Source: an uncultured Verrucomicrobiota bacterium
Lineage (GTDB): Bacteria > Verrucomicrobiota > Verrucomicrobiia > Palsa-1439
NCBI GenBank assembly: GCA_964574605.1
Contig: CAZNOK010000002.1
Span: 1-59,424 of the forward strand
DNA length: 59,424 nucleotides
Reading direction: 5' to 3'
Part shown: piece by piece, positions 13,140 through 59,422 of the stretch
Position numbering within the stretch: the stretch's first letter is position 1
Layout of the letters: every line of letters begins with the position of its first letter
Program-made: the position numbers and the translations under genes
Notes under the pieces: generated by a model
Databases searched by the model: none
The model's input: only the letters and a program-made list of their open reading frames with translations
What the model was told of the DNA's origin: nothing

Positions 13140-14354
13140 CTACGCAGACCGCATGCGGATGAACCACGTGACATCTTCGTCAAGCTCATAGGGGCGGTTA
13201 AGCTCGGCGGAAATTTCATCCACTGCACGCTTCACGCCCCACTTTGGGTTCTCGCCTAGCTCGATGTCGTGGCCGCAAAGCAGACCGCCATGTTTAACTT
13301 TTGGCAGCCAAGCACGGATATCCTCGATGCAGCCCTCATAGGTATGATCGCCATCGACGAATGCGAAGTCGAGAGACCGGTCGGGAACCTGAGCCGCGGC
13401 TTCGAGGGAAGGCGCGCGCATAATGGTGCGCCTTCCAGCGGCAAAGTCGGTGCGGCGGAAGGCATCCGCGTGCCAGCGGTCCCATGTGGCTTGTGAGGTA
13501 TGGGCGTAAGCGGCCGGGCTTTGTTCATAGCGTGAGTTCTTGGGCCATTGCAGCCAAGGGTCCACCATGCGAAGTCGTAGGTCGGGCCGGGCGGCTAATA
13601 AGTAGGCGGAGAGTTTGCCGCGGAGCACGCCGATCTCGGCACCAGATGGGTTGGTGACACCTCGGAGGTGTTTGAGGATGGCATCGCCGCGTCCGATGCG
13701 GGGCCGGAAATCCTCGACGGGGCAGGACCAGAATGCATAGAACCAGCGAAGCTGTTCGACAGGACGGCCGGCAATTCCGTGCATATGGCCAACGACGATG
13801 TTGTTGGCATCGGCTGGCTTCATGAGATGCTGAAAATCCAGCCAGTTGAACTCTTTTTGCAGCCAGCGTGCCGCGATGCCGAGTTGGACCCGCGCCGCAT
13901 TGAGTTGGGTTTGATCCTTGAATGGCGACTTAAGCGTTTTCAACAGGGCCTCTGCTCGCTCCAACAGTTTCCGGTGGTGTGTCCGGTTAAGGATGAAGAA
14001 GCCGCTGTTGAAGTACTCCTTCGGCGGAATCCCGACCCGCCGAGCATCCTGTATGACCCAACCGCGGTCCCAGAGATCGCCGACACAAACCAGTTCCGGC
14101 AGATTCGCGTATGCGCGGGGATCGAACTGCTTCAAGAAAATCGTGTCGGCATCGAAGTAGAGAATGTTTTCCACTTCGGGAAACTCCTCGAACATCCGGA
14201 ATTTCAGGTGGTGCGGGTGTTGGACGCCATGCCGCAGCGCCGCCTCGGGGCCGAGAATGTGAACCTCCAGCCCAGTGCGCTGCCGGCAGGAGTCGGCGGC
14301 GAGTGTCGCCAGTAGTTCATACTTTTCGCCAACGCCGATGGTTACCGCGATCAT
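13140..14354 (-). CDS. GT8-like glycosyltransferase fused to class I SAM-dependent methyltransferase (Methyltransf_24-like)
   Basis: ATG 14354 overlaps the GT9 stop (ATGA); an alternative ATG lies at 14366. N-terminal half has DxD-type ILYFDADTIF and NSGFFILN. C-terminal half has LDFAFVDGDHTYEGCIEDIRAWLPKVKHGGLLCGHD. Confidence 0.65.
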   Translation of the reverse strand: MIAVTIGVGEKYELLATLAADSCRQRTGLEVHILGPEAALRHGVQHPHHLKFRMFEEFPEVENILYFDADTIFLKQFDPRAYANLPELVCVGDLWDRGWVIQDARRVGIPPKEYFNSGFFILNRTHHRKLLERAEALLKTLKSPFKDQTQLNAARVQLGIAARWLQKEFNWLDFQHLMKPADANNIVVGHMHGIAGRPVEQLRWFYAFWSCPVEDFRPRIGRGDAILKHLRGVTNPSGAEIGVLRGKLSAYLLAARPDLRLRMVDPWLQWPKNSRYEQSPAAYAHTSQATWDRWHADAFRRTDFAAGRRTIMRAPSLEAAAQVPDRSLDFAFVDGDHTYEGCIEDIRAWLPKVKHGGLLCGHDIELGENPKWGVKRAVDEISAELNRPYELDEDVTWFIRMRSA

Positions 14355-15478
14355 GAGCTTGTCCATATCGCCTGACAGAATTCCCTTTCTTTTGAACTCA
14401 GATACTTGACCGCGCCGCCGGCGAAGTAGCACTCGATGCGGCGGATGACTTCCTCCGCACTAATCATATCCATGCAACGCGGCAATAGGCGCGGCCATTG
14501 CTCGCGCGGATAGGCCAGCGCGTTTTTCGGTGGCGCGCTGCTCCCGTTGCCGGGCAGCACGACATCCACGCATATCTTGTCCGGCTTGTCTTTCTCGTCG
14601 CCATCGCCCAGCGGCACGGCCCGCGACTTCCAACAACCGCCGTTATCGCAGCAGAACAGCGCGCCGTTGGTGTGGATGTATTGATGATGCGGATACGCTT
14701 CCCACTGCGCCGGTTCGCGTCCGCCGGCCACCACCACGCACGGGCGGTTCTTTGGCATCCCCGTCTTGGTCTCGACCGCCGCCGCAAGATGCATCATCAG
14801 CGTCACCGGGCAGAGCACGCCTTGGGCGTGATAGACCAGCCGCACCAGTTGCCGCAGATCGGTCTTGCCGCGAAAGTCGAGTGCGCCTTTCAGTGCTGGA
14901 TGCTCGTGGCCTTTCTCGCCGACTTGCACGAACAGAATCTTGCCCCGGAAATAGTCCACCACTTTCTGGAACCGCTCGTGCGACCACCATTTGATGGTGA
15001 AGTCCTTCTTGCCGCCGGCCACGACGATCCAGAATGGCACCGGCTCCTTGGTGATCTCCTGCACTTGCGACATCCATTGCTTTTCCGGCGGCGCAAGATG
15101 AATGTCGCCCTTGAACGGGCCGGGACGGATCGCGACGCTGAGTTTCGCGCTGAGGAACTGCGTGAACCCGTGGATGAAATGCCACGGCTCGGTGTTGCTG
15201 TGGTGAATCAACGGATACTCGCACTGGATGACCTCGTCCGCGATCTGTAGCCGCGAGGCGTCCTCGCGGCCCGGTTTAGCCCCGCCGCGAACAGGGTTCG
15301 CGGCTACAGGCTCAGCCAATGGTGTGATATACGGATTGTTCTCCCAGAGTTGCGGGCAGGGTGTGCGCACATCCGTGAGAAACTGTTTTGGGTGCGACAG
15401 GTGCAAGTCGCGCACCGCTGCCGTCAACATCACGATGTCGCCGGGCGACAGGAAATTTTTCAGGATGATTTTCCTCAT
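14351..15478 (-). CDS. Glycosyltransferase family 9 (heptosyltransferase-fold) protein
   Basis: N-terminus KIILKNFLSPGDIVMLTAAVRDLH. C-terminal GT9-type Cys/CM..I....V signature (FCCDNGGCW...CMDMISAEEVIRRI). Its ATG overlaps the stop of the upstream poly-Ser ORF (ATGA at 15475-15478). Confidence 0.75.
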   Translation of the reverse strand: MRKIILKNFLSPGDIVMLTAAVRDLHLSHPKQFLTDVRTPCPQLWENNPYITPLAEPVAANPVRGGAKPGREDASRLQIADEVIQCEYPLIHHSNTEPWHFIHGFTQFLSAKLSVAIRPGPFKGDIHLAPPEKQWMSQVQEITKEPVPFWIVVAGGKKDFTIKWWSHERFQKVVDYFRGKILFVQVGEKGHEHPALKGALDFRGKTDLRQLVRLVYHAQGVLCPVTLMMHLAAAVETKTGMPKNRPCVVVAGGREPAQWEAYPHHQYIHTNGALFCCDNGGCWKSRAVPLGDGDEKDKPDKICVDVVLPGNGSSAPPKNALAYPREQWPRLLPRCMDMISAEEVIRRIECYFAGGAVKYLSSKEREFCQAIWTSS

Positions 15479-16101: not shown

Positions 16102-16105
16102 GGGT

Positions 16106-16174
16106 GTAGGGGCGGACTGCGTCCGCCCCTGTTGTCCGTCGCATTGCGGCGGGGCGCACGCAGTGCGCCCCTAC
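16106..16174. repeat. REP-like double-hairpin element (GTAGGGG...CCCCTAC), copy D
   Basis: The sequence is GTAGGGGCGGAC-TGC-GTCCGCCCC ... GGGGCGCAC-GCA-GTGCGCCCCTAC. It has two 9-bp-stem hairpins and inverted GTAGGGG/CCCCTAC ends. It is intergenic, between the stop at 16185 and the start at 16101. Confidence 0.75.
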
Positions 16175-16184
16175 CGCGCGCACC

Positions 16185-16805: not shown

Positions 16806-16831
16806 GATGTAACCTTCTCCTTTCTAGGTGG

Positions 16832-43049: not shown

Positions 43050-46000
43050 CTATGGTTTGCTTACGCGCACATAACGACTCGCCGCATGGCGGGAGGCGAG
43101 GTCGCGCACGCGGATTTCCCAGACGCCGGGCTGGTCGTTGGAAGCAATGTCGAGCTTCAACTCCAACCGCCCGTTTTTCGCCCCGTAGTAACCGGTCCAT
43201 TCCTCGTCGCGGCCGCTCGCATCGCGAACCTCCACGCGCACCGGCACAACGGCGTTGAGCGGGCGTCGTTGCGAATTGACGACGGAAACCTGGCAGGCCA
43301 GTGACTGGCCGAGCGCCACTTTGTCGGCCGATTCGATGGCAATGCCGGCAATCGCTTCGTCAGTAACCATGAACACACGGCCTTCGCACGGGCCGAGTTG
43401 CGATTGAATCTGCAAGCGGCCACCCGTGTTGGCGGCGGGCACGGCGCGCCCGGCAATGAGGTCGTACACGAAACCGTGCGGTCGCTCCAGTGTAAGCGCG
43501 CTCTCCGAAGGCAAACCGTTTTCCATGACGAGTTCGAACTGGCCGACATAATCGCCAAACTCGCGCTTGTCGTTGACGACAAACAGATAGTCCGTCGTGC
43601 CGTAGGCGCGGCAGCGGGCGATCACATCGGGCGTGGAGGAATCGCTGTAACGGCGGTAGCGTTTGTCGAGCGCCTTGCGAAGCTCGGCGGCCTTCGCAAT
43701 CAGCGCGGCACGAGCCTGCTCCGCGTTGCGCGCGCGGTCGCCGCTCTGGACGACAATGTCCGCCTTGATCGCCGGGCAAAGACGCTCGTCGCCGACGATG
43801 ATGCCACCCTTTTTCTGAAACTCTTTCACCTTTGCGGCGACGGTCGCCGTAAGCACGTCGCAATCGAACATCACCAGCACGCGGAACCCATCGAGGCCGC
43901 GCTGCGCGATTGTCTCGTCAAAAACAATCTCCGGCTGCAACTGCGCCCACATCATCACATGATAACCGTCGCCGCCCCAGCCGCGTCCCCATCCGTACGT
44001 GCCGCGCCGGGCGAACATCTGCGAGGCGAAACTCTCCAGATACGCCACGTCGCTTTTGCGGTCGGGCACCTGCATCAAGGCCGGCCCGAGCGGTTCCACG
44101 ATTTCTTTGACCAACCGGCGCAGTTCGTGTTGCGTTTGCGGGTGCGTGTACCGGTACGAACTCTTGCTGCCCTCGACCGGCACGAGCGACTGCCAGCCGT
44201 GATACATGATGCCCTGAATCGGGCGCGCCATCTTCGTCCAGAACGCTTCCCGCAGATGCATCGGGGCAATGGTCGGGAATATCCTGTCCGGGTCGGTGTC
44301 CTCAAACACTGATTTGACCGCCTTCTTAATTTCGTCACCTTTCTTGGCCGGCATGGTCTGGTTGCGATACCAGATGATCTGAGTCATTTTCATCACCTGT
44401 TGCGGATGCGTTGCGCCGCGCGCCATGGCGAAGAGTTCATCCGTCGCCACACCGATGCGGATCGGGTCGGGATACGAATAGGTCCACTGCGAAATCGCGT
44501 CTGCCGCCCCGCCGCTGCCATAGACACTCGCCACGCGGACCGCCGGGTCGTGGAATGTCCAGAGATCGGTGCGTCCCGTGGACTTCAACCCGCGATGCAA
44601 CTCCGTGTTCAACACGTTCCAGCCGTCGCCAGTCTTCCAATACCACTGGCAGTACCGGTAAAGTGGATGATCGTCGGGGATCACACGGTCAGCGGGAAAA
44701 CCCTTCAAGTCCTGATATTTCACGCCTGACTTGGCGGTGACTTCGGCGGGAATATCCGCGCCGGTGGCCTTGCGGTAGGCGGCGCGGTCGTGATCGTGGT
44801 AGCACAGCCCGGCGCCGTCCCGCACCTCCGTGTGCAACAATGCCGCCTGCCATGCCGGGAACGCGCCATAGGTCTGCGCCATCGAGGCACCGATGTTGTA
44901 ACAAAATTTTTGCACTTCCGGGAACAGCCCGCACACTGCAGCTCGTTCCTCATTGCTCTTGCCCTTGCGGTCAATGCGACGGAACTCCTTCTTGCCGGCC
45001 GCCCAGCGACCGGGCGAAAGGCTGCTGCAAATGCCAAAGCCGTTCGCCAGCGCGATGTTCAGCATCCGTTTGTGCTCTGCCACCTGTTCAGGGTCATCGG
45101 CAAGAACCGGCTTGCCCGCTTGGAAAATCGAGCCGTTGTCAGCCCCCATCCCCAAACAATGCGTGAACCCAATCTGTTTCAACCGGGGCAGTTCCTTCAA
45201 CACGTTGCCCGCGCCGACACCCCACATCAACACCGCCATCCGTTGCGGCAACGGTCGCGACACGATGGTCACCGGAAATGATTCCTCGCTCGTGTACGGT
45301 TTGTCGCCCGCGATCCGGATGCTCGCCCGCACCTTGTATTCGCCGGGCCGCAACGTCGTGTCGAACGGGAACCCGACCGTGTGCATCGCGCCCGCGTCAA
45401 GTTCCGGTAATGTTCCGGTTTTCGCGGGAGCGCCTTCGAGCGCGAAACTGACGGTGGCGCCCTTGAGTTTTGTCCGCTGCAAGTTCGTGACGGCGAATTG
45501 CAGCGCGGCTCCTTTTTCCATGCGAACAAACACATTCCGCTCGGAAACGGCTCCGAACATCGCTGTGCGAAACTCCAGCACGCCATTGCAGATCCGGACC
45601 TGCGCGATGTAACCGGGGAAACCGTGATGAAGGCTCCCTACCCTGTCACCGATGTTGAGCGGATGCTTGCCCGCCACGATGCTGCCGCGATCCGGTTTCG
45701 TGCTGCCGCCGAACACTGCGCCATCGCGATAAAACCGGCCTTCGCCGGCCCCATTGTAAGTGAACGCGACGTGATACCACTTCCCGACTTCAAACTTCGC
45801 CGACTCCGAGCCGAACGACTCCGAACTGTCGCCGAACCCCAGCCGCATGACCAAGTGACGCGGTCCACCACCCTTGCCCGCTGCGCTCAATACGAACTGG
45901 TAGTCGGTATCGGCCACATATTTCTTGTCCAGCAACATCGCTTCTGGATAACCTTCCAATTCCTTCTTCGGCTTGATCCACATCTCAATCGTGAACGCGC

Positions 46001-46469
46001 CCTTCGGCGTCAACACCGGCTTGTTCGCGACGATGGCCGCGTGCTTCTTGTCCTCGAACGGATGGCCGCGATACGATTCCAGGCACGACCCGAACTTGCC
46101 GTCTTTCGCGATGACTGCTCCCTGAAGTTTCAGATGCAATTTGTTCGATGACGAATCATTTGTCTCCGCACCGACCCGGAACTGCCAGAGACCGATCACG
46201 TCCTTGCCGGTGGCGGATGCTCCCGTGTAAATGCCCTGCCACGGCTCGCTCAGTCGTGGCGCCGCCATCGCAGTCAGGGCAAGGAATAGGACAAGCAATT
46301 GTAGGGCAACCGCTCCGGTTGCCGCTGTTTTCCCCCGTGGCAAGCGAGGCGCTTGCCCTACAACACTCCCGGTAGGGCCGACCCGCCGGGTCACCCGCGG
46401 GCGTGAATCCCGTTGAAACGGTCGAGCCGGCGGCTCGCCCCTACCACTACGGATGGCGATCCGTTTCAT
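43050..46469 (-). CDS. Large secreted LamG-domain protein with glycoside-hydrolase-like TIM barrel and GATase1-like (GH42 trimerisation-type) module
   Basis: ATG 46469 lies 1 nt after the upstream stop. LamG block (FTIEMWIKPKK...WYHVAFTYNGAGEGRFYRDGAVFG...YIAQVRICNGV). C-terminal GFRVLVMFDCDVLTATVAAKVKEFQKKGGIIVG. The N-terminal 55 aa are encoded by two REP-like elements that precede the hydrophobic core AVALQLLVLFLALTAMAAP. Confidence 0.6.
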   Translation of the reverse strand: MKRIAIRSGRGEPPARPFQRDSRPRVTRRVGPTGSVVGQAPRLPRGKTAATGAVALQLLVLFLALTAMAAPRLSEPWQGIYTGASATGKDVIGLWQFRVGAETNDSSSNKLHLKLQGAVIAKDGKFGSCLESYRGHPFEDKKHAAIVANKPVLTPKGAFTIEMWIKPKKELEGYPEAMLLDKKYVADTDYQFVLSAAGKGGGPRHLVMRLGFGDSSESFGSESAKFEVGKWYHVAFTYNGAGEGRFYRDGAVFGGSTKPDRGSIVAGKHPLNIGDRVGSLHHGFPGYIAQVRICNGVLEFRTAMFGAVSERNVFVRMEKGAALQFAVTNLQRTKLKGATVSFALEGAPAKTGTLPELDAGAMHTVGFPFDTTLRPGEYKVRASIRIAGDKPYTSEESFPVTIVSRPLPQRMAVLMWGVGAGNVLKELPRLKQIGFTHCLGMGADNGSIFQAGKPVLADDPEQVAEHKRMLNIALANGFGICSSLSPGRWAAGKKEFRRIDRKGKSNEERAAVCGLFPEVQKFCYNIGASMAQTYGAFPAWQAALLHTEVRDGAGLCYHDHDRAAYRKATGADIPAEVTAKSGVKYQDLKGFPADRVIPDDHPLYRYCQWYWKTGDGWNVLNTELHRGLKSTGRTDLWTFHDPAVRVASVYGSGGAADAISQWTYSYPDPIRIGVATDELFAMARGATHPQQVMKMTQIIWYRNQTMPAKKGDEIKKAVKSVFEDTDPDRIFPTIAPMHLREAFWTKMARPIQGIMYHGWQSLVPVEGSKSSYRYTHPQTQHELRRLVKEIVEPLGPALMQVPDRKSDVAYLESFASQMFARRGTYGWGRGWGGDGYHVMMWAQLQPEIVFDETIAQRGLDGFRVLVMFDCDVLTATVAAKVKEFQKKGGIIVGDERLCPAIKADIVVQSGDRARNAEQARAALIAKAAELRKALDKRYRRYSDSSTPDVIARCRAYGTTDYLFVVNDKREFGDYVGQFELVMENGLPSESALTLERPHGFVYDLIAGRAVPAANTGGRLQIQSQLGPCEGRVFMVTDEAIAGIAIESADKVALGQSLACQVSVVNSQRRPLNAVVPVRVEVRDASGRDEEWTGYYGAKNGRLELKLDIASNDQPGVWEIRVRDLASRHAASRYVRVSKP
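46300..46362. repeat. REP-like double-hairpin element, copy C1 (TGTAGGGCAA...TTGCCCTACA)
   Basis: Inverted ends TGTAGGGCAA/TTGCCCTACA. Internal hairpins GGCAACC-GCTCC-GGTTGCC and GGCAAGCG-AGG-CGCTTGCC. It lies inside the 5' end of ORF 43050..46469. Confidence 0.75.
46371..46445 (-). repeat. REP-like double-hairpin element, copy C2
   Basis: The reverse complement starts GGTAGGGGCGAGCCGCCGGCTCG, identical to the first 23 nt of copies A and B. It ends GACCCG-C-CGGGTC...GGCCCTACC. Confidence 0.75.
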
Positions 46470-46470
46470 G

Positions 46471-47181
46471 TTACTTCCCAAGCTGCGCTTTGATGCTGGT
46501 GACAACCAGTTCCGCGAGCTTCTTCGAACCATCCGTGTGGAAATGGACGTTCTTCGGAAGCTGAATCTCGGCGAGATGCGCCGCGGCGTAAGCGTGCAGG
46601 TCGTCAATGGCGACGCCGTTTTCCTTCATGATCTTCGCCGCGACCTGATTGTATTCGACCTCGGCCCCTTTGATACGCCCATCACAACCGTCCGGCACCG
46701 GTGTGGTCGCGCACCAGATCAACTTCGCGCCGGTCTTCTTCATGCGCGCAACGAGTTCGCGAAGGTTCTTCTCGTAAACTGGCAACGGATTGACCTGTTT
46801 GCCTTTGTCGGGCGTGGCGAGTTTCTTGTTCGCGTCGAAATACTTCAAGTCGTGGAGGCCCCAGTTGAAATGAATCACGTCCCACTTCCCGGTGCCGAGC
46901 CACGAATCGAGTGATTCGAGTCCCTTCGTGGTGTCGCCGCAATTCGTCGGTGCGCGGTGGACATTGGCCACGCCCTTGAGAAGTTCGCGCACCGGCACCG
47001 TGTAGCCCATCGAGATCGAATCACCGATGAGCATCACGCGCGGCAACCCGGCAACATCCTCGACCTTCTCCAACGAAGGACTGGGTTTCTTGGGCCGGCT
47101 CGTCTTGGTGGACTTGGTGGCGGCGGTGACAGTGAGTGGCAACAACGCAACGATGGCGAGAGCGATAAGGTAACGTTTCAT
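46471..47181 (-). CDS. Secreted SGNH/GDSL-family hydrolase
   Basis: Signal peptide MKRYLIALAIVALLPLTVTAA. Block I is VMLIGDSISMGY. WDVIHFNWGLHDLK is also present. The C-terminus has DGSKKLAE, which I did not align to a catalytic block. Confidence 0.8.
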   Translation of the reverse strand: MKRYLIALAIVALLPLTVTAATKSTKTSRPKKPSPSLEKVEDVAGLPRVMLIGDSISMGYTVPVRELLKGVANVHRAPTNCGDTTKGLESLDSWLGTGKWDVIHFNWGLHDLKYFDANKKLATPDKGKQVNPLPVYEKNLRELVARMKKTGAKLIWCATTPVPDGCDGRIKGAEVEYNQVAAKIMKENGVAIDDLHAYAAAHLAEIQLPKNVHFHTDGSKKLAELVVTSIKAQLGK

Positions 47182-47428
47182 AGTGGCGCGAGATTGTCAC
47201 AACCCCGCCAGCAAGGCAAGCCGCGAAGCGTAGCGGATGCAGTTCAATCCTTTAAGCCGGAACGCCGTCGTCTCGACGGTTTCAGACCAGACTCCGACCG
47301 CCGGTACGGCGGCGCTCCTCTCGCTGACCGAAACAACGGAACGGTGCAACCCGTCACAACCTGACTCATCGTCTATGGACATAATTCGCATGCAGTGCTG
47401 AAATGACGCGAGCATGCAAGACAGGCAA

Positions 47429-48223
47429 TCAGTCTCGAAAAACGTATTCGCGATGGTAGGCCAAACATGCCGGGTCAGGTTCGGCAAGTTTGTCGGGCGG
47501 ACGAATCACCCTGCCCTCGAACTTCACGAAATTGTGCTTCAACGACAGTTGGGGAAGATAACGTTTGAGTCGTTTACTGAGCACCACACGATATTTCTCA
47601 TCGAGCGTGATCAAACCATCATCAAAGGCGGCATCGTGCAACGACGAGAGGCACAGCCCGTTGCGCGGATTGAGCCGGTCACTCGGAAAGTCGCGCCACG
47701 GTTTGATGTGGCTGGCCACCAACAACCGCGGCACGCAAATTCCGGTGATGCAACACCGAACACTGTAGGCATTGAGGATTGCTTGACGAAAGAACTGTTG
47801 GCCACGACGTGCGCACACAGTTGTTCGTACCTCGGTTGGCCCCGACGGTTGCACCAGTCGCACTCGGTCGCGTTGGAGGAAATCCACTTCACGGTCATCA
47901 GCGGTGGTAAAGAGATTGTGCAGCAATTGCTCGCTTTTGGGACCGAGCGTCGCCACGTTAGCTTGAAACTCGTCCCACACTGTCTTGTCCTGTCTGGATG
48001 CCTTCGACAATCCACGCACACCACGCGCCAGTTGCACGGGATCGAGCGAGGCGAAGTTGCACAGCTTCATCGCGAGACTGTTGGATGTGCGTCCCATCTT
48101 GCCGGCAACCTCAATGATAATCGGATTGCGTCCGTGCAGTTTCCCAAAGGGAAGCTTGCAATACAGATTGAGCGCCATCAGCAGGTGCTCACGTGTCCAT
48201 TTCACGTTAGTCGCTCTTGTCAT
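47429..48223 (-). CDS. HNH endonuclease (HNH_2-type, restriction-endonuclease-like)
   Basis: Start chosen at MTRATNVKW (ATG 48223). The HNH core is RCCITGICVPRLLVASHIKPWRDFPSDRLNPRNGLCLSSLHDAAFDDGLITLDEKYRVVLS. Composition is lower in GC than the neighbours. Confidence 0.75.
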   Translation of the reverse strand: MTRATNVKWTREHLLMALNLYCKLPFGKLHGRNPIIIEVAGKMGRTSNSLAMKLCNFASLDPVQLARGVRGLSKASRQDKTVWDEFQANVATLGPKSEQLLHNLFTTADDREVDFLQRDRVRLVQPSGPTEVRTTVCARRGQQFFRQAILNAYSVRCCITGICVPRLLVASHIKPWRDFPSDRLNPRNGLCLSSLHDAAFDDGLITLDEKYRVVLSKRLKRYLPQLSLKHNFVKFEGRVIRPPDKLAEPDPACLAYHREYVFRD

Positions 48224-48288
48224 GGGCCAAGTGTAGCGGTGTTGTTCTCTGAGACCAATCAGAAATATCATTTCAGCATTACCAGACG

Positions 48289-48444
48289 ATGAACAAGGAA
48301 CAAGAATACGATACCGAATTCCCCGACCCGGCAGCCGTTTTCGCGTGTGCGCTGTCGCTCTGGCAAGCATGCCACAAATGTGAGGCGGTGGAACCGTCTC
48401 TAAACCTTAGTGCAGCAAATCATAAGTTCGTTCCGAGTTTTTGA
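48289..48444 (+). pseudogene. N-terminal fragment of an unknown gene split by the IS630-family insertion
   Basis: ATG 48289 opens MNKEQEYDTEFPDPAAVFACALSLWQACHKCEAVEPSLNLS. The frame then reads into the IS end (AANHKFVPSF*) and stops at 48442-48444. It is not in the ORF track because it is shorter than 60 aa. Confidence 0.65.
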
Positions 48445-49670
48445 CGCGTGGGGTGGGCGGTGCAACGTTGCTCTCACCAAGGAGGAATTGACCAATGCCC
48501 CGAGGACCGAAGCCCATCTGTCGGGTCTGTCTCACGGCGCAGCAACGTCGCTGTCTCCAGCACCTGGCGCGGCAGACAACGGCGGCTTATGCGCGGGTCG
48601 TGCGCGCCAAGATCGTGCTGACCGCCGCCGAGCATCCGCTCTGGACCCATGCGGCCATCGCGCAGCAAGTGGGCTGCTCCGACCGCACGGTACGCAAGTG
48701 GCGCGCCCGCTGGCGCGACACCCATCTGTTGGCCGACCAAGCACGGGGTGGTTGTCCACGCCTTTTTTCCCTCGGCCCAGCGCGCACAACTGACTGCGCT
48801 GGCCGGCACGCTGCCGCGTGACTTTGGCAAACCGCTGTCGCGTTGGTCGGCGACTGAATTGGCGCGCGTCGCCCGCCAGCAACACATCGTCAAGCGGATC
48901 TCACCCGCGACGGTGCAGCGCTGGCTGAGAGCCGAGCGCATCAAACCGTGGCAATATCGGAGTTGGCAGCAGTCGCCGGATCCGAGGTTTTTGGAGAAGG
49001 CGCTGCCGATTCTGCGATTGTATGAACGCGCGCAAGCCTTGGCCCGGGCGGGCCATCTGGTGGTGTGCGTGGACGAGAAAACTTCGATTCAGGCACGCCA
49101 ACTGGAGGGCGGCGTCCGTCCGGCACGGCACGGCGGCACGCTGCGGGTAGGAGACCGCTATCGGCGGCGTGGCGCGCTGCAATTATTTGCGGCGTTGTCG
49201 GTGGCGGGTGGGGAAACGCTGGCGCGCTGTTACGCAACTAAACGCTTTGTCGAGTTTCAGAACTTTCTGCGAATGATGTTTGCGAGCGTGTGGTGTCGAG
49301 CGGTGCGCTGTCTGCACCTGATTCTGGACAATGGTTCCACGCATGCGCCGCGGCAACTGTCGGAGTGGATTGGCGGCTTGGAACTGGGTTTTGAGGTGCG
49401 GCTGCACTGGCTGCCCGTTCACGCCTCGTGGTTGGATCAGATTGAGATTGTGTTCAGCCAAGTACAAAGGAAAGTGCTGACTCCGAATCACTATCACAGC
49501 GTTGGTGACCTGGAGCGGACGCTGATGGCGCATTTCACGCAACGCAACCGAAGGCCCGTGCCGATTCAGTGGAGTTACACCGTGGAAAAACTGTTGCAGC
49601 GGCGCCGCCTCAGACAGCCGCTGTGTCTGGCGGTCTAAACAACTCGGAACGAATTTGAGATTTCATGTAC
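48410..49670 (+). mobile_element. IS630-family insertion sequence (about 1.26 kb)
   Basis: Imperfect terminal inverted repeats: left GTGCAGCAAATCATAAGTTCGTTCCGAGTT (from 48410); the reverse complement of the right end is GTACATGAAATCTCAAATTCGTTCCGAGTT (to 49670). Flanks are ...CCTTA | IS | TTAGTG..., consistent with a TA/TTA target duplication. It encodes a DDE transposase. Confidence 0.8.
48495..49638 (+). CDS. IS630-family DDE transposase, two frames joined at a T6 run (programmed +1 shift or 1-nt indel)
   Basis: AAGGAGGA RBS at 48478-48485. The orfA HTH part is 48495..48821 and the orfB part is 48649..49638. Removing one T of T6 (48763-48768) yields the continuous ...GGCPRLFPSAQRAQLTALA.... 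DDE residues are in VVCVDEKTSIQ, LILDNGSTH and ASWLDQIEIVF. Confidence 0.75.
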
Positions 49671-50218
49671 TTAGTGAAGCTTATCGCGGCATGGATCAAC
49701 TCATGCGTGAGATTATGCGGACTGCAACGGAGTTTGAAATCTGGGCTTGCGACCACATCCGATTCGACGCGCTAGAAGCTGTATGGCCATATTTGCTGGA
49801 AGACCGGTTTGGTAACGGCTGCTTAGCAGTGCTGTTGCCAACCGGGCTAACCGATTTCGACGAGACGGACTGTCTTCGTGTCGCTTTGCACCTGCATTTA
49901 CCAATCAGATTGGATGATAAACTCCGTCTCCCCATCTTCCTACGAGCACCGAATCCCGTCATCGGGTCCGCCTTTCGTGAAATTCAGATTCAGACGATGC
50001 GCAATTCAGCCGAAGATAACGAAGCAAGTCCGTTCACTTTCGGCGACGAACCTTTCGATGAGGAATTTGGACCGCCCTATTTCGTTCTGTATGGAATCGC
50101 CGAAGATGGACTTTTAGATTACATTACAGATCGACAGACTTACTCGCAGATTTTAAGTCTCGCACAAAAGCTTTTCCCCGGCGTGACATTTCCCAACGAA
50201 CCAATCGTTTCACAATAA
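49670..50218 (+). pseudogene. C-terminal fragment of the gene split by the IS (about 180 aa, unknown function)
   Basis: The frame of ORF 49655..50218 continues the 48289 frame exactly across the IS: ...SLNLS | (L S) EAYRGMDQLMREIMRTATEFEIWACDH.... Composition is lower in GC. No recognisable domain. Confidence 0.65.
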
Positions 50219-50378
50219 ACGCAAAGTTGCTCGGCCATCAGAATCCGTGGCCATTCGTGTGTATCTGTGGTTAATATCTCGCGGGTGGCCGGAACATTAC
50301 CGGAACTTGGTTGCAACGCTGGATTCTGGTACAAGTTCAGCACAAACAAACCCGTTCTATTGAAAGGAGAGTCTTATC

Positions 50379-51005
50379 ATGAACCTGTTCACGAAACTCA
50401 GTGTGTTGCTGGTGGTCGGAGTCGCTTGCGCCGGGTGCGCGGCCACCAATAAGGGCGCGGCTTGGAAGCCGTTGATGGACGGCAAGACGTTCAACGGCTG
50501 GCACCCGGTCGGCGACGGACAGTGGACCGTCGAGGACGGGGCGTTCGTTGGCCGGGCGAACAAGGAGAAACTCTACGGCCTGTTGGTGAGCGACAAGCAA
50601 TTCAAGGATTTCACGGTGCGGTTCAAGTTCAAGTCCCTCACCGGCGACAGCGGTTTTTACGTTCGCACGATCATCGAGCCGCCGGAGAAGGCGCACGGGT
50701 TGCAGGTGCAAGTCGGGCCACCCAACACCGGCACGGGCGGCATCTATGAGAGCTACGGACGGAAGTGGCTCCCGGCAAAGCCAGCCGCCGATTTTGAGAA
50801 AACATACCTCAAGCCCGACGATTGGAACGAGATGACCATTGCCGCGCACGGCGGCAACATTGTTGTTCATGTCAACGGCATCAAGGTCACCGAGTTGCAG
50901 AATGATCCGAGCCGGCCGGAAGGTCATTTCGCGATGCAGATGCACGCCGGTTGCGTCATGGAAGTCCGATTCAAAGACATCGAGATTCTTGAGGCCAAGC
51001 CGTGA
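50379..51005 (+). CDS. DUF1080 (3-keto-disaccharide hydrolase family) lipoprotein
   Basis: AGGAG at 50365-50369. Lipobox-like LLVVGVACAGC. DUF1080 pattern (WKPLMDGKTFNGWHPVGDGQWTVEDGAFVG, FTVRFKFK, GDSGFYVRT, EGHFAMQMHAG..VRFKDIEI). Confidence 0.8.
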   Translation: MNLFTKLSVLLVVGVACAGCAATNKGAAWKPLMDGKTFNGWHPVGDGQWTVEDGAFVGRANKEKLYGLLVSDKQFKDFTVRFKFKSLTGDSGFYVRTIIEPPEKAHGLQVQVGPPNTGTGGIYESYGRKWLPAKPAADFEKTYLKPDDWNEMTIAAHGGNIVVHVNGIKVTELQNDPSRPEGHFAMQMHAGCVMEVRFKDIEILEAKP

Positions 51006-51093
51006 AAACCACAGTTGTAGGTAGGGGCGAGCCGCCGGCTCGCCCGCATCACATCACCCCAACGGACGAGCCGGCGGCTCGTCCCTACCGTGC
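51001..51093 (+). repeat. REP-like element, copy A (93-nt unit including the GTGA gene junction)
   Basis: The core at 51021-51088 is GTAGGGGCGAGCC-GCC-GGCTCGCCC...GGACGAGCC-GGC-GGCTCGTCCCTAC. The full 93 nt match 51981-52073 with 8 substitutions and no indels in my manual alignment. Confidence 0.85.
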
Positions 51094-51985
51094 TCTCCTG
51101 CTTGCGAGTTTTGCGTTTCTTTGCGGCCAATGTCTTGCCGCCAAGCCGACAACCGTTGACCGGACAACATCGTTGCGCGGTTCCTACGGAACGTATGCCA
51201 GCACGCCGCGCGGCAAGGACGGACGCGCGGATGTCGGGCGGCTGGCCAAGGAGTTGGTGGACTTGCGCGTCAACACCTATCACTGGCTCGTCTGGCATGC
51301 AGCGACGGATTGGGATGACTTGAAGCTATTCCTGCCGCTGGCACGCAAGCACAGCATTCGCGTCTGGGTCTGCTTGGTTCCGCCGTCGGAGTCGCCGCCA
51401 AAGACGAAGAACTACTCGGAGCCGTTCCGATTGGATTACGAGCGTTGGGCTGTCGAAATCGCCAAGCTCAGCAAAGTGGAGCCGAATCTCGTGGCGTGGT
51501 CCATTGATGATTTCTCCCACAACCTCAAGGTGTTCACCCCGGAACATCTGGGCAAGACCCTCGGCGAGGCGCGCAAGATCAATCCGCGGCTGGCATTTGT
51601 GCCGTGCGTTTATTTCCCGAAGGCGTCGCAGGCGGGATTGGCAAAGGATTATCGCGGGTTGCTCGACGGCATCCTGTTTCCGTATCGCCACGAGTCGGCC
51701 AAGGCCAACCTGACCGATGCGAGTCTGGTTTGTGAAGAAGTCGGGAAAATCAAGGCTGCATGGGGCGCGAACTTCCCTGTCATCGTGGATGTTTATTCCA
51801 CGGCACACAGTCGCCTCGGCGCTTCGACTCCTGATTACGTGCGGCAGGTGATGACCGCAGGGTTCCGCTGCGCCGATGGCGTTCACATCTACACGCATCC
51901 GCGTCCCGGTTCGGAGAAGCACGCTGTCGCAATGCGACTGTTCCATGAATGGGCAGCCAACACACCAAGGAGCAAGTCACCGTGA
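51002..51985 (+). CDS. Secreted hypothetical TIM-barrel glycoside-hydrolase-like protein
   Basis: GTG 51002 overlaps the DUF1080 stop (GTGA). The first 30 codons are REP-encoded (VKTTVVGRGEPPARPHHITPTDEPAARPYR), followed by the hydrophobic ALLLASFAFLCGQCLAA. The body has no named motif (LVWHAATDWDDLKLFLPLARKHSIRVWVCLVPP...). Confidence 0.5.
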   Translation: MKTTVVGRGEPPARPHHITPTDEPAARPYRALLLASFAFLCGQCLAAKPTTVDRTTSLRGSYGTYASTPRGKDGRADVGRLAKELVDLRVNTYHWLVWHAATDWDDLKLFLPLARKHSIRVWVCLVPPSESPPKTKNYSEPFRLDYERWAVEIAKLSKVEPNLVAWSIDDFSHNLKVFTPEHLGKTLGEARKINPRLAFVPCVYFPKASQAGLAKDYRGLLDGILFPYRHESAKANLTDASLVCEEVGKIKAAWGANFPVIVDVYSTAHSRLGASTPDYVRQVMTAGFRCADGVHIYTHPRPGSEKHAVAMRLFHEWAANTPRSKSP

Positions 51986-52073
51986 AGACCAGAATTACAG
52001 GTAGGGGCGAGCCGCCGTCTCGCCCGCATCACATCGCCCCAACGGACGAGCCGGCGGCTCGTCCCTACCGCGC
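51981..52073 (+). repeat. REP-like element, copy B (93-nt unit including the GTGA gene junction)
   Basis: See copy A. The core is at 52001-52068. One substitution weakens hairpin 1 (GCCGCCGTCTCGCCC). Confidence 0.85.
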
Positions 52074-53955
52074 CGCCGCGGCGCTTACCGTGTGCTTGCT
52101 GGCCTTCAGCATTTTCGCATCTTCCTGCGCGAGACAAGTCGACAGCACAAATCTCACTTTGCCGGCGGACAAACGGCCGGAATGGTTGCGTCGCGATGGC
52201 ATCGTGATGGCGGGAAGCTGGGAGCCGTTGTTGTTCCGCGTGCGACGCGACGGCGCAGAAGGTTACACGCCGACACCGGAACAGCGCGCCGCCTACGCGC
52301 GCGAACACAGCCCGGAGATGGTGGCGAAGTTGAAATCGCTCGGCGTGAACTTCGTGATGATGCACTGCTACAAGGGCGGCGGGCTGGAGGCGGAACGCGA
52401 AAGCATGGCCGACGCGGTGAAGTTCGCCAAGCTCTGTCACGACGCCGGACTGCGCGTGGGTTGTTACACCTACAGCGGCGCCTTCATTTGGGAACTGTTC
52501 TTCAAGGAGATGCCACAAGCCAAGGACTGGGTCATCCTCAATCCCGATGCTTCGCCGCTCACCTACGGCAAGGCCGGATACCGCTACTTCTGGAACCACT
52601 GTCATCCCGACGCGCAGGCGTTCTACCGCAAGATTGTGCGGTTCGCCGTCGAAGATATCCGCACCGATCTCATCCACTTCGACAACTACACTATCGGCCC
52701 GGGCCATGACGCACATTCCGTCACCCGCTTCCGCGAGTATTTGCGCAAGACGTTTCCCGCATCGCTGCTGAACGTTGACATCGCCACCGTCATGCCGCCG
52801 GACCGCGCTTGCACCAACCTGCTCAGCCGCGCGTGGGCGGATTTTTGCTGCCAGTCCATTTCCGATTCGTTCCATGACATGACACGCTACGCGCGCTCGT
52901 TGCGCCCGGACATTCTCATGGAAACGAATCCTGCCGGCATCAGCCCAACAATCCGCTGGGCGGTGGATCATGGACGGTTGTTGCGCGGCGGCGAGGCGTT
53001 TTGGGATGAAGGACGCCGCCCCGGTCTTGTAAAAGACAAGCTGACAACGCGCATCCGCACGTTCAAGGCAGCGCGCGGCCTGAACAACTCGGCGTTTGTC
53101 TATACCCGCACTCCGCTCGAAACGGCCGAGTCCATGGCCTTCAATCTCGATTGTCTCGGTTGCGTCTGCTGGTTTGAATATGGCGAGCCATACGAGCATC
53201 CCGGCGACAAAACGCTCATGTCCCCTGCCCTGTTGCCGTTCGTAAACTTCTTCCACAAGCGGCGCGACTTGTTACGCGACGCCAACGTCGTGGCCGATGT
53301 CGGCGTGTTCCGAAGCTGGCCTTCGATACAGTTCGGCTCGCGTCAGACGGCGAAACTCACCGGTGAAGTCGAGGACTTGCTCATTGCGAACCGTTACGCA
53401 TTCCAGTTGGTGTTCGACACGCAACTTGAGGAACTCTCACGCTGGCCGGTGCTTGTGATGCCGGGCTGCGTGGCGTTGTCGGACGCGCAGGTGAAGGCAA
53501 TCCGCCGCTACGTCGCCAATGGCGGGCGGCTCTGTGTCATCGGCCCGCTGGCGACGCACAACGAGTGGATGTTGCCGCGCGAGAAACCCGCGCTCGACGA
53601 TTTACCGGCGGTTCGCGTGGACGAAAAAGGCGACTGGCTCGATGCGATCCGCCGCGCCTGCGGCGGCCAGTTTTCCCTTTCCATCACAACCGATTCGAAA
53701 GCTCTGTGTGCGGAACTCACCGAGCAACCTAATCGTCGCCTTGTGCATCTGGTGAATTACAACGCAGAAAATCCAGTGAAGGACGCCGTCGTTCGCGTCG
53801 TGCTTCCGAAAGGACGCGCGGCAAAGTCCGTCACACTCGCCAGCCCTGAGCACGCCGCCGACATCACAGTCCCGTTCAAGCAAGAAGGCGGCGTCGTGAC
53901 ATTCGCCGTACCAACGGTCGGCGTTTATGAAATCGCAGTTGTGTCATTCACATGA
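51982..53955 (+). CDS. Secreted putative glycoside hydrolase (TIM barrel + GATase1-like GH42-trimerisation-type module)
   Basis: GTG 51982 overlaps the upstream stop (GTGA). The N-terminus VKTRITGRGEPPSRPHHIAPTDEPAARPYR is REP-encoded, followed by AAAALTVCLLAFSIFASSCA. GVNFVMMHCYKGGG...LRVGCYTY and a C-terminal WPVLVMPGCVALSDAQVKAIRRYVANGGRLCVIG are also present. Confidence 0.45.
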   Translation: MKTRITGRGEPPSRPHHIAPTDEPAARPYRAAAALTVCLLAFSIFASSCARQVDSTNLTLPADKRPEWLRRDGIVMAGSWEPLLFRVRRDGAEGYTPTPEQRAAYAREHSPEMVAKLKSLGVNFVMMHCYKGGGLEAERESMADAVKFAKLCHDAGLRVGCYTYSGAFIWELFFKEMPQAKDWVILNPDASPLTYGKAGYRYFWNHCHPDAQAFYRKIVRFAVEDIRTDLIHFDNYTIGPGHDAHSVTRFREYLRKTFPASLLNVDIATVMPPDRACTNLLSRAWADFCCQSISDSFHDMTRYARSLRPDILMETNPAGISPTIRWAVDHGRLLRGGEAFWDEGRRPGLVKDKLTTRIRTFKAARGLNNSAFVYTRTPLETAESMAFNLDCLGCVCWFEYGEPYEHPGDKTLMSPALLPFVNFFHKRRDLLRDANVVADVGVFRSWPSIQFGSRQTAKLTGEVEDLLIANRYAFQLVFDTQLEELSRWPVLVMPGCVALSDAQVKAIRRYVANGGRLCVIGPLATHNEWMLPREKPALDDLPAVRVDEKGDWLDAIRRACGGQFSLSITTDSKALCAELTEQPNRRLVHLVNYNAENPVKDAVVRVVLPKGRAAKSVTLASPEHAADITVPFKQEGGVVTFAVPTVGVYEIAVVSFT

Positions 53956-57646: not shown

Positions 57647-59422
57647 CTAAGGAACCACGGGAAGAACAAGCCTTGACGCACACTGCCCGCCGTGACGGAT
57701 AGTTTGGGTAGCGACTTCGAGTTTCGCATCGGCATTCTGATCGGCGGCGGTGTTGTGATTGCGGTCGTAGTTGGGGAAATCGCTGCTGGTAACGTCGAGG
57801 CGGATACGATGACCGGGCTGGAACTCGTTCGCAGTGGGGCGCAGCTTGATGCGATACTCAACGACTTCGCCGGGCTTGAGGAGTCGCGGTTTGTCGAGGC
57901 CATCACGATACCGCGCGCGCACCATGCCGGAGGCGATGTCGCGGTTTGTGCCATCGGGCGCAACGTCAATGAGCCTTGCGAAAAAGTCCGTGTCCGGCGC
58001 CGAGGAGGCAGCGTAGAGGACAACCTCCGGATACCCCGTGACCTCCAGCGGCATCGTGAGCGGTTCGGTTTGATACACGAGAATGTCCTCCCTCTTGGCG
58101 AGCGGCGTTTGATCGGAAGGCAAGGTGAACATGTTGGCGTCCCAAAGTGTCGGCACGGGATCACGCGGGTCATAGCGATAACGGTCGGCACCGGGTTTTT
58201 CCGTCGTTGTCAGCAGCCGCTTGTTGCTGGCGAGGAACCATTCCGCTTTTTGTGCGCGCTTTGGCGGCCATTCCTGTTCGTCACGCCATTGGTTTGCACC
58301 CATGACAAAGATGCGCACGGGGGCGTCCTTGTCCACGCCGTTGGCCTTGCCTTTCAGCCAGTAGTCGAACCAGCGGATTTCCGCCTGCGCAATGTCAAAC
58401 TCAGCCTCTGGACCAAAATCTATGTTCCCCACCTTGCGTCGTGGGGCGCCGGTATGGTTCCACGGGCCGATGATGAGGCGTTGGCCGGTGCGGGCGGCTT
58501 TCGTCCGACCCACGCGACACATCGTTTGATGAAACTCGATGCTGTCGTTGCAGTGGTCGAACCAACCGACGATGTCGAAGTTGGGGACGCTGATTTCCGG
58601 GCAGCCGTCCGTCAACCGCCACGGATCAAGATGAGGTTGCCGCAGCCACGCTTTCACACATTCTTCTTCCTCTTCGAAAACCATTTTCGGCAGATTCAGC
58701 CACGGCAGAAAATACAACAGACGATCGCGCTCGCCCTCCTTCCAGAGTTTGGCCGCGTCTGCTTTTGTCTTTGGACCTTCTGCGCCGGAGCGGAGTCGCA
58801 TATCGGGCGTCATGCCGCAGTAAAACCAGTTTAACCGTCGGCCCGGACGAATCGTGCCCGGTCCTTCGACCTGTGTCAGGCGCGGCGGAATCGTGCCGGC
58901 CGACATGGCCACGAGCGACGGCGGACGCAGCGGCGCAAGCCGCCATTGCAAAAACGCATTGTAAGAACGGCCAAACGTTCCGACCTTGCCGTTTGAGCCC
59001 GGCAACTTCGCGGCCCATTCGACGGTGTCGTAGCCGTCTTCGGCATCGTGGGTTTGGAAGCGGTAAAACGATTCCCATTTCCCGTCGGAGGCATAACGAC
59101 CGCGTGCGTCCTGCCGCACGACGATATAGCCCGCCTCCACATGAGGATCAGCTTTCTTGCGATCCTTGCTATACGGCGTGCGCAACACCAACACCGGATG
59201 CGGTCCGGGTTCTGAAGGACGGAACACATCGGCGCGCAGGATCACGCCGTCGCGCATCGGCACCGGCACATTGCGCTCCACATTCACTTCGGCGGCAAGC
59301 AGCGCGACGCCAAGCAGAAGTCCGATTCCGGTAGCCGCACCCTTTACGGCTGCGCAGGAGACGCAGGCATAAAGTCTGCGGCTACGGGTTCTGTGAGAAG
59401 CTTTTAGTTCTTGAAAACGCAT
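57647..59422 (-). CDS. CocE/NonD-family (S15 X-Pro dipeptidyl-peptidase-like) hydrolase
   Basis: The N-terminal catalytic region is typical of the family (VPVPMRDGVILRADVFRPSEPGPHPVLVLRTPYSKD, GYIVVRQDARGRYASDGKW, VGTFGRSYNAFLQW). A C-terminal jelly-roll domain follows. The ATG lies 2 nt from the window end. Confidence 0.8.
   Translation of the reverse strand: MRFQELKASHRTRSRRLYACVSCAAVKGAATGIGLLLGVALLAAEVNVERNVPVPMRDGVILRADVFRPSEPGPHPVLVLRTPYSKDRKKADPHVEAGYIVVRQDARGRYASDGKWESFYRFQTHDAEDGYDTVEWAAKLPGSNGKVGTFGRSYNAFLQWRLAPLRPPSLVAMSAGTIPPRLTQVEGPGTIRPGRRLNWFYCGMTPDMRLRSGAEGPKTKADAAKLWKEGERDRLLYFLPWLNLPKMVFEEEEECVKAWLRQPHLDPWRLTDGCPEISVPNFDIVGWFDHCNDSIEFHQTMCRVGRTKAARTGQRLIIGPWNHTGAPRRKVGNIDFGPEAEFDIAQAEIRWFDYWLKGKANGVDKDAPVRIFVMGANQWRDEQEWPPKRAQKAEWFLASNKRLLTTTEKPGADRYRYDPRDPVPTLWDANMFTLPSDQTPLAKREDILVYQTEPLTMPLEVTGYPEVVLYAASSAPDTDFFARLIDVAPDGTNRDIASGMVRARYRDGLDKPRLLKPGEVVEYRIKLRPTANEFQPGHRIRLDVTSSDFPNYDRNHNTAADQNADAKLEVATQTIRHGGQCASRLVLPVVP

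Follow-up and report, generated by a model that had tools for sequence, protein, structure and literature searches.

Repetitive extragenic palindromes (REPs) headed by GTAG were defined, along with those of the CGTC type, as superfamilies by Di Nocera, De Gregorio and Rocco in 2013 (PMC3733652). That survey catalogued intragenic REPs as well, with the largest number (~70) in Opitutus terrae, itself a verrucomicrobium; in-frame dimers encode 20-30 residues, intragenic copies are found at N-termini more often than at C-termini, and many of the N-terminal cases may be misannotations (PMC3733652). Here, two REP dimers are described that lie at the 5' ends of two consecutive genes for secreted enzymes, genes A and B, in the window, a stretch of 59,424 nt from contig CAZNOK010000002.1 of an uncultured freshwater Verrucomicrobiota metagenome-assembled genome (MAG). 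All positions given are those of the window. An earlier inspection of the letters of the window, here called the sequence-only reading, had drawn attention to this pair as unusual on the premise that REP-type repeats are strictly intergenic. This premise does not hold, as the 2013 catalogue already includes GTAG REPs that lie in frame within genes, some of them N-terminal (PMC3733652). The locus consists of the following features.

50379..51005, plus strand: DUF1080 / 3-keto-disaccharide hydrolase gene (Pfam PF06439, E = 8e-36), the TGA of which forms the first GTGA junction
51002..51985, plus strand: gene A, encoding a secreted enzyme of an uncharacterised family without Pfam match (open reading frame list, homologues)
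51020..51089, plus strand: REP dimer A (REPIN-like), from the inverted repeat, the GTAG palindromes, the fold and the boundaries of copies at unrelated loci
51982..53955, plus strand: gene B, encoding a GHL10-like glycoside hydrolase (open reading frame list, Pfam)
52000..52069, plus strand: REP dimer B, 68/70 identical to dimer A (alignment, repeat search, fold)

Pairwise alignment of positions 50991-51110 with 51971-52090 revealed 8 mismatches among 93 positions and 0 gaps between 51001-51093 and 51981-52073, and an independent repeat search returned the same pair as a 94-nt repeat of 91% identity (family D7). The near-identical 93-nt pair with 8 differences and no indels that had been reported by the sequence-only reading was thus reproduced by both approaches. 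However, the identity is uneven. It amounts to 68/70 (97%) in a 70-nt core and to 15/20 (75%) in the 20 nt to the left of this core, and on the right the similarity ends directly after CTACCG and is then at background level. As judged by these alignments, the repeat element proper is the 70-nt core alone and not the whole 93-nt unit. The core is an inverted dimer of GTAG-headed palindromes, GGTAGGGGCGAGCC..GGCTCGTCCCTACC, resembling a REP doublet forming a hairpin (REPIN). Its core motif GAGCCGNCGGCTCG has 11 matches in the window against 0.45 expected, and the repeat is therefore not a product of chance. Dimer A is made up of a left arm at 51020-51046 (GGTAGGGGCGAGCCGCCGGCTCGCCCG), a spacer at 51047-51062 and a right arm at 51063-51089 (CGGACGAGCCGGCGGCTCGTCCCTACC), and together with 2 further bases it gives a 24-codon insert, GRGEPPARPHHITPTDEPAARPYR, in gene A. 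Dimer B encodes GRGEPPSRPHHIAPTDEPAARPY(R) in gene B. As had been described, each unit has GTAGGGG, a pair of palindromes and CTAC, but the first palindrome is not perfect in both, that of unit B including one mismatch (GGGCGAGCC-GCC-GTCTCGCCC).

Within a unit, one palindrome is also the complement of the other (27-nt arms, 93%, 16-nt spacer; inverted repeat I8). RNA folding, which the sequence-only reading had put forward as a check, predicted a very stable structure at both units, though in each case it was one long hairpin and not the two separate small hairpins proposed. The minimum-free-energy fold has -75.0 kcal/mol for dimer A (z = -6.7) and -76.3 kcal/mol for dimer B (z = -6.6), and 0 of 200 shuffles were as stable for either. 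A scan of positions 45500-53000 against Rfam at permissive E-values identified no family, the sub-threshold hits being chance matches to miRNA hairpins alone. A role of the units as promoter or terminator was rejected, since neither a sigma-70-like nor an intrinsic-terminator-like site was found at either unit.

This anatomy agrees with that of GTAG REPs and REPINs, in which GTAG stands beside a palindrome of 20-27 nt, and two such units with a spacer form an inverted dimer that folds into one long hairpin (Bertels and Rainey 2011, PMC3116915; PMC3733652). Several classes per genome, a high copy number and the lack of a target-site duplication are further features in common. In the supplementary table of intragenic REPs of PMC3733652, which lists peptides, the arm GTAGGGGCGAGCCGCCGGCTCGCCC was not found and 'GCGAGCC' and 'EPPARP' are absent. 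Bacterial transposable elements of the miniature inverted-repeat type (MITEs), such as Correia/NEMIS and RUP, are likewise small, non-autonomous and hairpin-forming, and are sometimes co-transcribed or in frame. Assignment as a MITE was rejected on account of the missing terminal inverted repeats of insertion sequence (IS) type, of flanks without duplicated bases (GTTGTA/GG..CC/GTGCTC and ATTACA/GG..CC/GCGCCG) and of the termini GTAG and CTAC. Because of the GTAG-palindrome architecture, the element is placed in the realm of Y1 transposases (those associated with REPs) rather than with MITEs.

Both units begin with cGTGAA, and, as the sequence-only reading had noted, TGA closes the upstream open reading frame (ORF) and GTG is in frame with the downstream ORF. 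The GTG start of gene A (51002) overlaps the TGA of the DUF1080 gene (51003-51005) and is preceded at 7 nt by a Shine-Dalgarno-like GAGG (50991-50994); the GTG start of gene B (51982) overlaps the TGA of gene A (51983-51985), with AAGGAG (51967-51972) located 9 nt before it. The dimer in gene A is flanked by the host n-region VKTTVV (51002-51019) and a hydrophobic core, ALLLASFAFLCGQCLAA (~51092-51142), and that in gene B by the host n-region VKTRIT (51982-51999) and the hydrophobic core AAAALTVCLLAFSIFASSCA (~52072-52131). The ORF translations confirmed that both units read VKT..GRGEPP(A/S)RPHHI(T/A)PTDEPAARPYR ahead of a hydrophobic stretch. The further claim that GTG is the sole in-frame start is correct for gene A, where the stretch from the element to the mature domain is free of in-frame ATG, GTG and TTG codons. 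It fails for gene B, in which an in-frame ATG lies upstream, at 51949, and the hydrophobic core includes both a GTG and a TTG in frame. Two gene callers differ in the start of gene B, which was called at the GTG in one case (L112) and at ATG 51949 in the other (L109). The hydrophobic cores that follow the elements (ALLLASFAFLCGQCLAA; AAAALTVCLLAFSIFASS) align with the signal peptides of homologues, and the extended n-regions of these putative signal peptides (30-57 residues) keep a net positive charge by hand count. A twin-arginine (Tat) leader was considered and dismissed, as no RR motif precedes the hydrophobic core of gene A or gene B.

The comparison with orthologues lacking the element, also proposed at the outset, supports insertion. 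More than 1000 homologues of gene A were found, mostly of 300-315 aa and with ordinary signal peptides. An orthologue of 78% aa identity (L113) has AAGGAG, 8 nt, ATG and the N-terminus MRTRMTITTLALAVAL.. (MRTRMT.. and then the hydrophobic core), and another of 85% nt identity (L123) has AAAGGAG, ATG and MKTRMMIATMAMAVAL.. (MKTRMM.. and then the core); no REP is present in either. The N-termini of gene B homologues are MKTRMTMTTLIL.., MKTKMIRIAMVL.. and MRTRITITAVIL.., i.e. MKTRMT../MRTRIT.. as compared with VKTRIT in the window. Since the homologues start in this way, VKTRIT is the ancestral n-region, with 24 codons, GRGEPPSRPHHIAPTDEPAARPYR, inserted between it and the hydrophobic core. Thus, of the options that had been raised, insertion of the element after the start codon and ahead of the signal peptide is borne out by orthologues that have matching n-regions and lack exactly these 24 codons. 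The option of a translated N-terminal extension is compatible with insertion and probably also true.

The limits of the element were further defined by copies at unrelated loci (L120, L122, L024 and L073), which align to the units only over GGTAGGGGCGAGCC...GGCTCGTCCCTACC (GGTAGG...CCTACC). Two of them, L120 and L122, have related spacers (GCGTCATTGCACCCCAAC and GCATCACGCCCCACTGAC) yet unrelated flanks, and the CCGTGAA leader is absent from the copies at unrelated loci. As only GGTAGG...CCTACC is shared, the CCGTGAA..ACC.. leader is host sequence. In the closest relatives of gene B (L115 and L116; 89% and 86% aa identity), the DUF1080 gene ends with ..GCCGTGAA.. or ..GCCATGAA.., and this end overlaps the start of the next gene (GTGA/ATGA), though the REP dimer there differs. 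The GTGA overlap is therefore ancestral, and it belongs, like the 'VKT' codons, to the host genes. The proposal that the element brings its own stop/start junction is contradicted both by the copies elsewhere without CCGTGAA and by this overlap next to a different dimer. It is very probable that the two units represent REP dimers inserted into host leaders.

A scan of the whole 59-kb window for GTAG plus a hairpin identified 7 dimers of at least 4 sequence classes. Both arms of units A and B and 14 further REP units of the window have GTAG and next to it a stem of 7-11 bp with a short loop, in most cases of 3 nt. In addition to dimers A and B, the following were found.

15245..15309, minus strand: REP dimer of a second sequence class (GTAGCCGCG...), mid-gene and in frame, encoding VAANPVRGGAKPGREDASRLQ
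16104..16176, no strand assigned: REP dimer of the GTAGGGGCGGAC... class, intergenic, the sole ordinary extragenic copy in the window
46299..46446, minus strand: two REP dimers in gene C, at 46299-46363 and 46373-46446 (GTAG-hairpin scan, frame check)
59330..59386, minus strand: REP dimer of the GTAGCCGCAG... class, lying in frame after MRFQELKASHRT and ahead of the hydrophobic core GIGLLLGVALLAA

Unlike typical GTAG REPs, which are extragenic by habit though with known exceptions, 6 of the 7 dimers in the window lie within ORFs in coding DNA. Gene C (43050..46469, minus strand, ATG at 46469) is a 1139-aa LamG-domain gene, and its leader comprises MKRIAIRS, then 49 residues derived from the two REP dimers and then the hydrophobic core LLVLFLALTAMAAP. 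The homologues of gene C have short signal peptides, all with MKxx and a hydrophobic core directly before the motif CEPWQ. The host of the dimer at 59330-59386 is an S15 / X-Pro dipeptidyl-peptidase gene (Pfam PF02129, PF08530) with an ATG at 59422; this start is located 2 nt from the end of the window, and an earlier one is possible. The dimer at 15245-15309 resides in a gene for a conserved cytoplasmic-type enzyme (14351..15478), and 9 of 9 aligned homologues lack ~20 residues (VAANPVRGGAKPGREDASRLQ) at exactly the point of the dimer. If the gene works, this dimer must be translated. The same minus-strand gene includes a second insertion of ~25 residues (residues ~305-330; ..NGSSAPPKNALAYPREQWPRL..), which is absent in most aligned homologues and has no obvious REP structure.

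Copies of the element were then sought outside the window. The 22-nt arm GTAGGGRCGAGCCGCCGGCTCG occurs at more than 108 loci in GTDB species-representative genomes, a lower bound from a scan in which the window's own genome is not among the matches listed, as compared with a chance expectation of ~0.3 matches (21 specified bases, 596 Gb; own calculation). The phyla and groups among the matches listed (L001-L108) include Verrucomicrobia, Chloroflexi/Anaerolineae, Acidobacteria, Omnitrophota, Brocadiales and Desulfobacca. Among the same matches, the arm mostly forms a self-contained GTAG...(C/G)TAC palindrome in Chloroflexi and inverted dimers in Verrucomicrobia. REP families are usually lineage-specific. 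The occurrence of an identical arm across distant phyla may reflect horizontal spread of a pair of transposase and REP or convergence.

The strain of the window was present at 99.7-100% identity in four lake or freshwater metagenomes of the Joint Genome Institute (JGI), and two assemblies stop inside the second copy. In Logan contigs of four public runs from lake metagenomes, the depth of the bins containing the REP was 145-460 as compared with ~4-15 in the flanks (10-30x), and contigs exit the arms into many different flanking sequences. Given this depth and this variety of flanks, the element is a high-copy dispersed repeat in that lake community. A joint labelled 'skips 994' was attributed to assembly collapse between the two copies. 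An exact-spacer scan of JGI metagenome contigs produced no matches, the collection evidently being without contigs of the four strain-bearing samples.

The position between start codon and hydrophobic core recurs elsewhere. Where the n-region and the core of gene B meet, its closest relatives L115 and L116 harbour another REP dimer (TGTAGCCGCGGCG...GCGTGGCTACAG), also in frame, and L123 has the dimer of the window in gene B but none in gene A. A dimer of the GCGAGCC type occupies this position in a DUF4139 protein (L024), and other REP dimers do so in an HlyD-family lipoprotein from Acidobacteria (L013), the second arm of which is of another class, and in an M23 peptidase (L082). Mid-gene, the GCGAGCC-type dimer was found in frame in the interdomain linker of MutL at three metagenome or MAG loci (L121, L125 and L104), and also in an asparagine synthase (L067), an esterase (L118 and L126) and a 1130-aa LamG protein (L124).

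As a whole, these observations are best explained by a mobile REP dimer that cleavable signal peptides tolerate within their disposable n-region, where it is probably translated, and this explanation is considered probable. Each unit would combine a host translation-start region, i.e. a Shine-Dalgarno motif, a GTG overlapping TGA and five further n-region codons, with an inserted 70-nt mobile element. The element would be a GTAG REP dimer that is not autonomous and is presumably mobilised by a Y1 (HUH) transposase of the REP-associated tyrosine transposase (RAYT) type. As the genes are packed with overlapping stops and starts, there would be no intergenic DNA to receive it, and selection would retain in-frame, stop-free copies in dispensable sequence, here the part of a cleavable signal peptide that follows the start codon and precedes the hydrophobic core. 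Translation would then begin at the ancestral GTG and read through the element, extending the n-region from ~6 to ~30 residues (57 in gene C) with its charge still net positive, and signal peptidase would discard the extension and leave the mature enzyme unchanged. A side effect at the RNA level is possible, in that the predicted hairpin, 15-18 nt past the stop/start overlap, could modulate translational coupling or mRNA decay.

A candidate transposase gene was seen in a related MAG. On a 578-kb Verrucomicrobia contig (L117, positions 9330-9880), a 150-aa Y1_Tnp gene (PF01797) lies directly upstream of the gene B orthologue, with GTAG palindromes in inverted orientation on its two sides (..CCCGTAGGGACGA.., ..TCGTCCCTACGGG..; GTAGGGACGA / TCGTCCCTAC). 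This gene looks like a RAYT flanked by REPs (a 'REPtron').

The available evidence leans towards translation of the dimers as part of a working signal peptide. Shine-Dalgarno-like motifs precede both GTGA starts and none is found after the elements. The coding frame is open through 6 of 6 coding-embedded dimers of the window, each having 1-2 of its 3 frames open, which gives a joint chance of ~0.01; in the dimers of genes A and B, where this was checked (51021, 52001), a second frame is open too. The frame GR[GD]EPPARP is the one used in each of the 8 independent insertions of the GCGAGCC-type dimer into coding DNA. Between the window and L123, the block of Shine-Dalgarno motif, leader and dimer is 98% identical, as compared with 84% for the 3' end of gene A and 75% for the hydrophobic core, and the sole indel beside dimer B is of 6 nt. 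The insertions, measured by hand in the window and at other loci, start 18-42 nt past the start codon and never nearer, a spacing that would leave the initiation site unstructured. The alternative is that the dimers are untranslated inter-cistron elements (an mRNA stabiliser, an RNase barrier or a coupling attenuator) with the true starts downstream of them: a near-cognate CTG or ATC in gene A and GTG or TTG in the core in genes B and C, the open frame being a leftover of the old start. Several findings weigh against translation and at the same time in favour of this alternative. Hairpins as stable as those predicted, such as one of -75 kcal/mol located 18 nt past the start codon, should hinder ribosomes. 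In-frame GTG, TTG or ATG codons are present inside or after the hydrophobic core of genes B (GTG/TTG) and C (TTG/ATG), and one gene caller starts gene C at ATG 46268, past the repeats. At L120 (149-216), a dimer lies directly 5' of a 525-codon ORF for a secreted protein, with a TAG in that frame at the 5' end of the element, so that in-frame openness is not universal; the sole canonical in-frame start before the hydrophobic core is a TTG in the spacer of the dimer, and the start has either been destroyed or relocated, or else a non-canonical one is used. In favour of the alternative, Liang, Rudd and Deutscher are said to have found in 2015 that, in E. coli, a REP no farther than ~15 nt from a stop codon lowers the expression of the gene upstream. 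Finally, most N-terminal REPs have been taken as extragenic, those in Pseudomonas putida, Citrobacter koseri and Stenotrophomonas maltophilia being regarded mostly as annotation artefacts (PMC3733652). It also tells against the preferred explanation that the public runs found for the organism are of DNA only and that roughly half of the dimers in other genomes clearly lie between genes. As to mobility, which would follow from family membership and copy number, tblastn identified no RAYT or Y1 transposase in the window, and no empty-site allele was seen in the four metagenomes, whose contigs break or collapse at repeats. Nevertheless, untranslated dimers with downstream starts are considered unlikely. 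Gene A offers no canonical one, starts in the core would leave no charged n-region, unlike in every homologue, and the Shine-Dalgarno motifs and the open frames are located as expected for initiation at the GTGA junctions. Moreover, the alternative GTG in the core of gene B is GTT in L123, the neighbouring indel is of 6 nt, and the mid-gene copies reveal that the element is translatable.

Two further proposals were considered. That the encoded peptide, GRGEPPARP...DEPAARPYR, is a functional module under selection, e.g. a targeting or regulatory N-terminal tag, would account for the single reading frame of the 8 coding insertions and for the 97% conservation of the dimer against 75-84% in flanking coding DNA (window vs L123). 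It is, however, highly improbable: the same DNA occurs also between genes and in both orientations, it sits in unrelated proteins at linkers and leaders, and other REP classes with unrelated peptides fill the same kind of site. What is conserved is the palindrome in the DNA, which recognition by a transposase or concerted evolution would lead one to expect. The second proposal is that the two units did not arise by two separate transpositions but are copies of one leader cassette, consisting of start codon, n-region and dimer, which passed between genes A and B in either direction, by local duplication, gene conversion or REP-to-REP recombination, with the operon order rebuilt. This remains rather doubtful. 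In its favour, the spacers are nearly identical, the 20-nt left flanks match at 75%, and the two units bracket gene A as direct repeats. Gene order varies, being DUF1080-A-B in the window, DUF1080-B without gene A in L115 and L116, where gene B directly follows the DUF1080 gene, and sulfatase-A-B in L123. The dimer of L123 is in gene B alone, and gene A there, downstream of the sulfatase gene, has a 5' end and a signal peptide unrelated to those in the window; window gene A would therefore have acquired a new 5' end, and recombination or conversion between REP-bearing leaders may have built the arrangement of the window. Against a copied cassette, identity is 97% in the element but 75% in the left flank, and on the right it is no more than background, the left-flank match is largely what any start of the type 'stop-overlap plus M-K-T' gives (L115, ..GCCGTGAACACC..), and copies with related spacers occur at unrelated loci (L120 and L122), as expected if dimers replicate whole. 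Among the homologues there are also A-B fusion proteins of ~905-933 aa (P0125, P0132, P0145 and P0146), and in two of them (P0125 and P0132) the signal peptide of gene B is absent at the junctions examined. A 333-aa gene after DUF1080 in L117, a candidate for a gene A orthologue in an ancestral DUF1080-A order, was rejected because its sequence is unrelated.

In E. coli, REPs and bacterial interspersed mosaic elements (BIMEs) act on mRNA as 3' stabilisers, and REPs no more than ~15 nt from a stop codon lower translation of the upstream gene. Like these, the units of the window have a stable predicted stem-loop 14-15 nt past the upstream stop codon in a polycistronic context. Unlike these, the stem-loop lies inside the frame of the next gene and not in a spacer. 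A parallel in behaviour is provided by Rickettsia palindromic elements (RPEs), described as selfish palindromes in frame within coding genes, which undergo translation and are tolerated in linkers or at the protein surface (Ogata et al. 2000, as cited in PMC3733652); expression in vivo is reported for N-terminal RPE-1 insertions, and, unlike the dimers here, RPE-1 is described as a longer palindromic insertion (PMC3733652). This likeness is one of behaviour and carries no claim of family membership. Placement in the n-region of signal peptides is not noted for RPEs, and the host here is Verrucomicrobia-like by its nearest homologues. RPEs are not known outside Rickettsia. In-frame REPs are thus known, from Opitutus terrae, and in-frame palindromes from Rickettsia, and what is described here is not a new kind of element or system. 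N-terminal REPs are not tied to signal peptides in PMC3733652, which treats many of them as misannotation, and no link between REPs and signal peptides was found in the literature searched. The recurrent placement between n-region and hydrophobic core, backed by orthologues, is therefore a modest addition.

A broader generalisation can be offered tentatively, although it is on present evidence improbable: in Verrucomicrobia with gene-dense genomes, and in some other phyla too, translated REP dimers would have a preferred 'safe harbour' in cleavable signal peptides, with the hairpin tuning coupling and the leaders swapping signal peptides. If so, an insert would be discarded with the leader at no cost to the mature protein, a hairpin 15-18 nt past an overlapping stop and start could tune translational coupling, and recombination at the repeated leaders could exchange signal peptides and rearrange operons. 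In connection with the last point, the junction in gene B has two different REP classes in different lineages, and gene orders vary. The dimers also bear on annotation. Gene callers disagree on GTG 51982 or ATG 51949 for gene B and on ATG 46268 or ATG 46469 for gene C, and a wrong choice of start removes a signal peptide or adds spurious residues and so alters the predicted secretion of polysaccharide-degrading enzymes in abundant freshwater Verrucomicrobia. For selfish DNA, the locus would illustrate how a mobile palindrome persists where genes leave hardly any space between them, namely in coding DNA that is discarded (signal peptides) or flexible (the MutL linker). It would further represent a natural experiment on the length and the degree of structure that an n-region, together with the initial 20-90 nt of an mRNA, can have with initiation and export maintained.

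Several other features of the window were observed. An IS630-like insertion sequence at 48406-49674, with a transposase ORF (48649..49638) including DDE_3 and HTH_32 domains, has an HNH-endonuclease-like gene (47429..48370, minus strand) on one side and the DUF1080-A-B operon on the other; its ends are 37-nt inverted repeats (48406-48442 and 49638-49674) that are 78% complementary. Adjacent paralogues at 31066-32524 and 32679-34131, which share blocks of 70-80% nt identity at a constant offset of ~1613-1625 nt, represent a tandem gene duplication. A tandem array at 16828-17098 contains at least 10 copies of a 21-nt unit (e.g. CCAATTGCCCGGAACCTCCAG) in overlapping long ORFs on both strands and would encode a 7-residue repeat. 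Long low-complexity stretches at 15480-16100 and 19230-20960 consist of periodic repeats of 9 nt, of the type GAACTGGA(A/T)GA, and of 27 nt, and they read as acidic, Leu/Glu/Asp-rich sequence on one strand and as Ser-rich sequence on the other.

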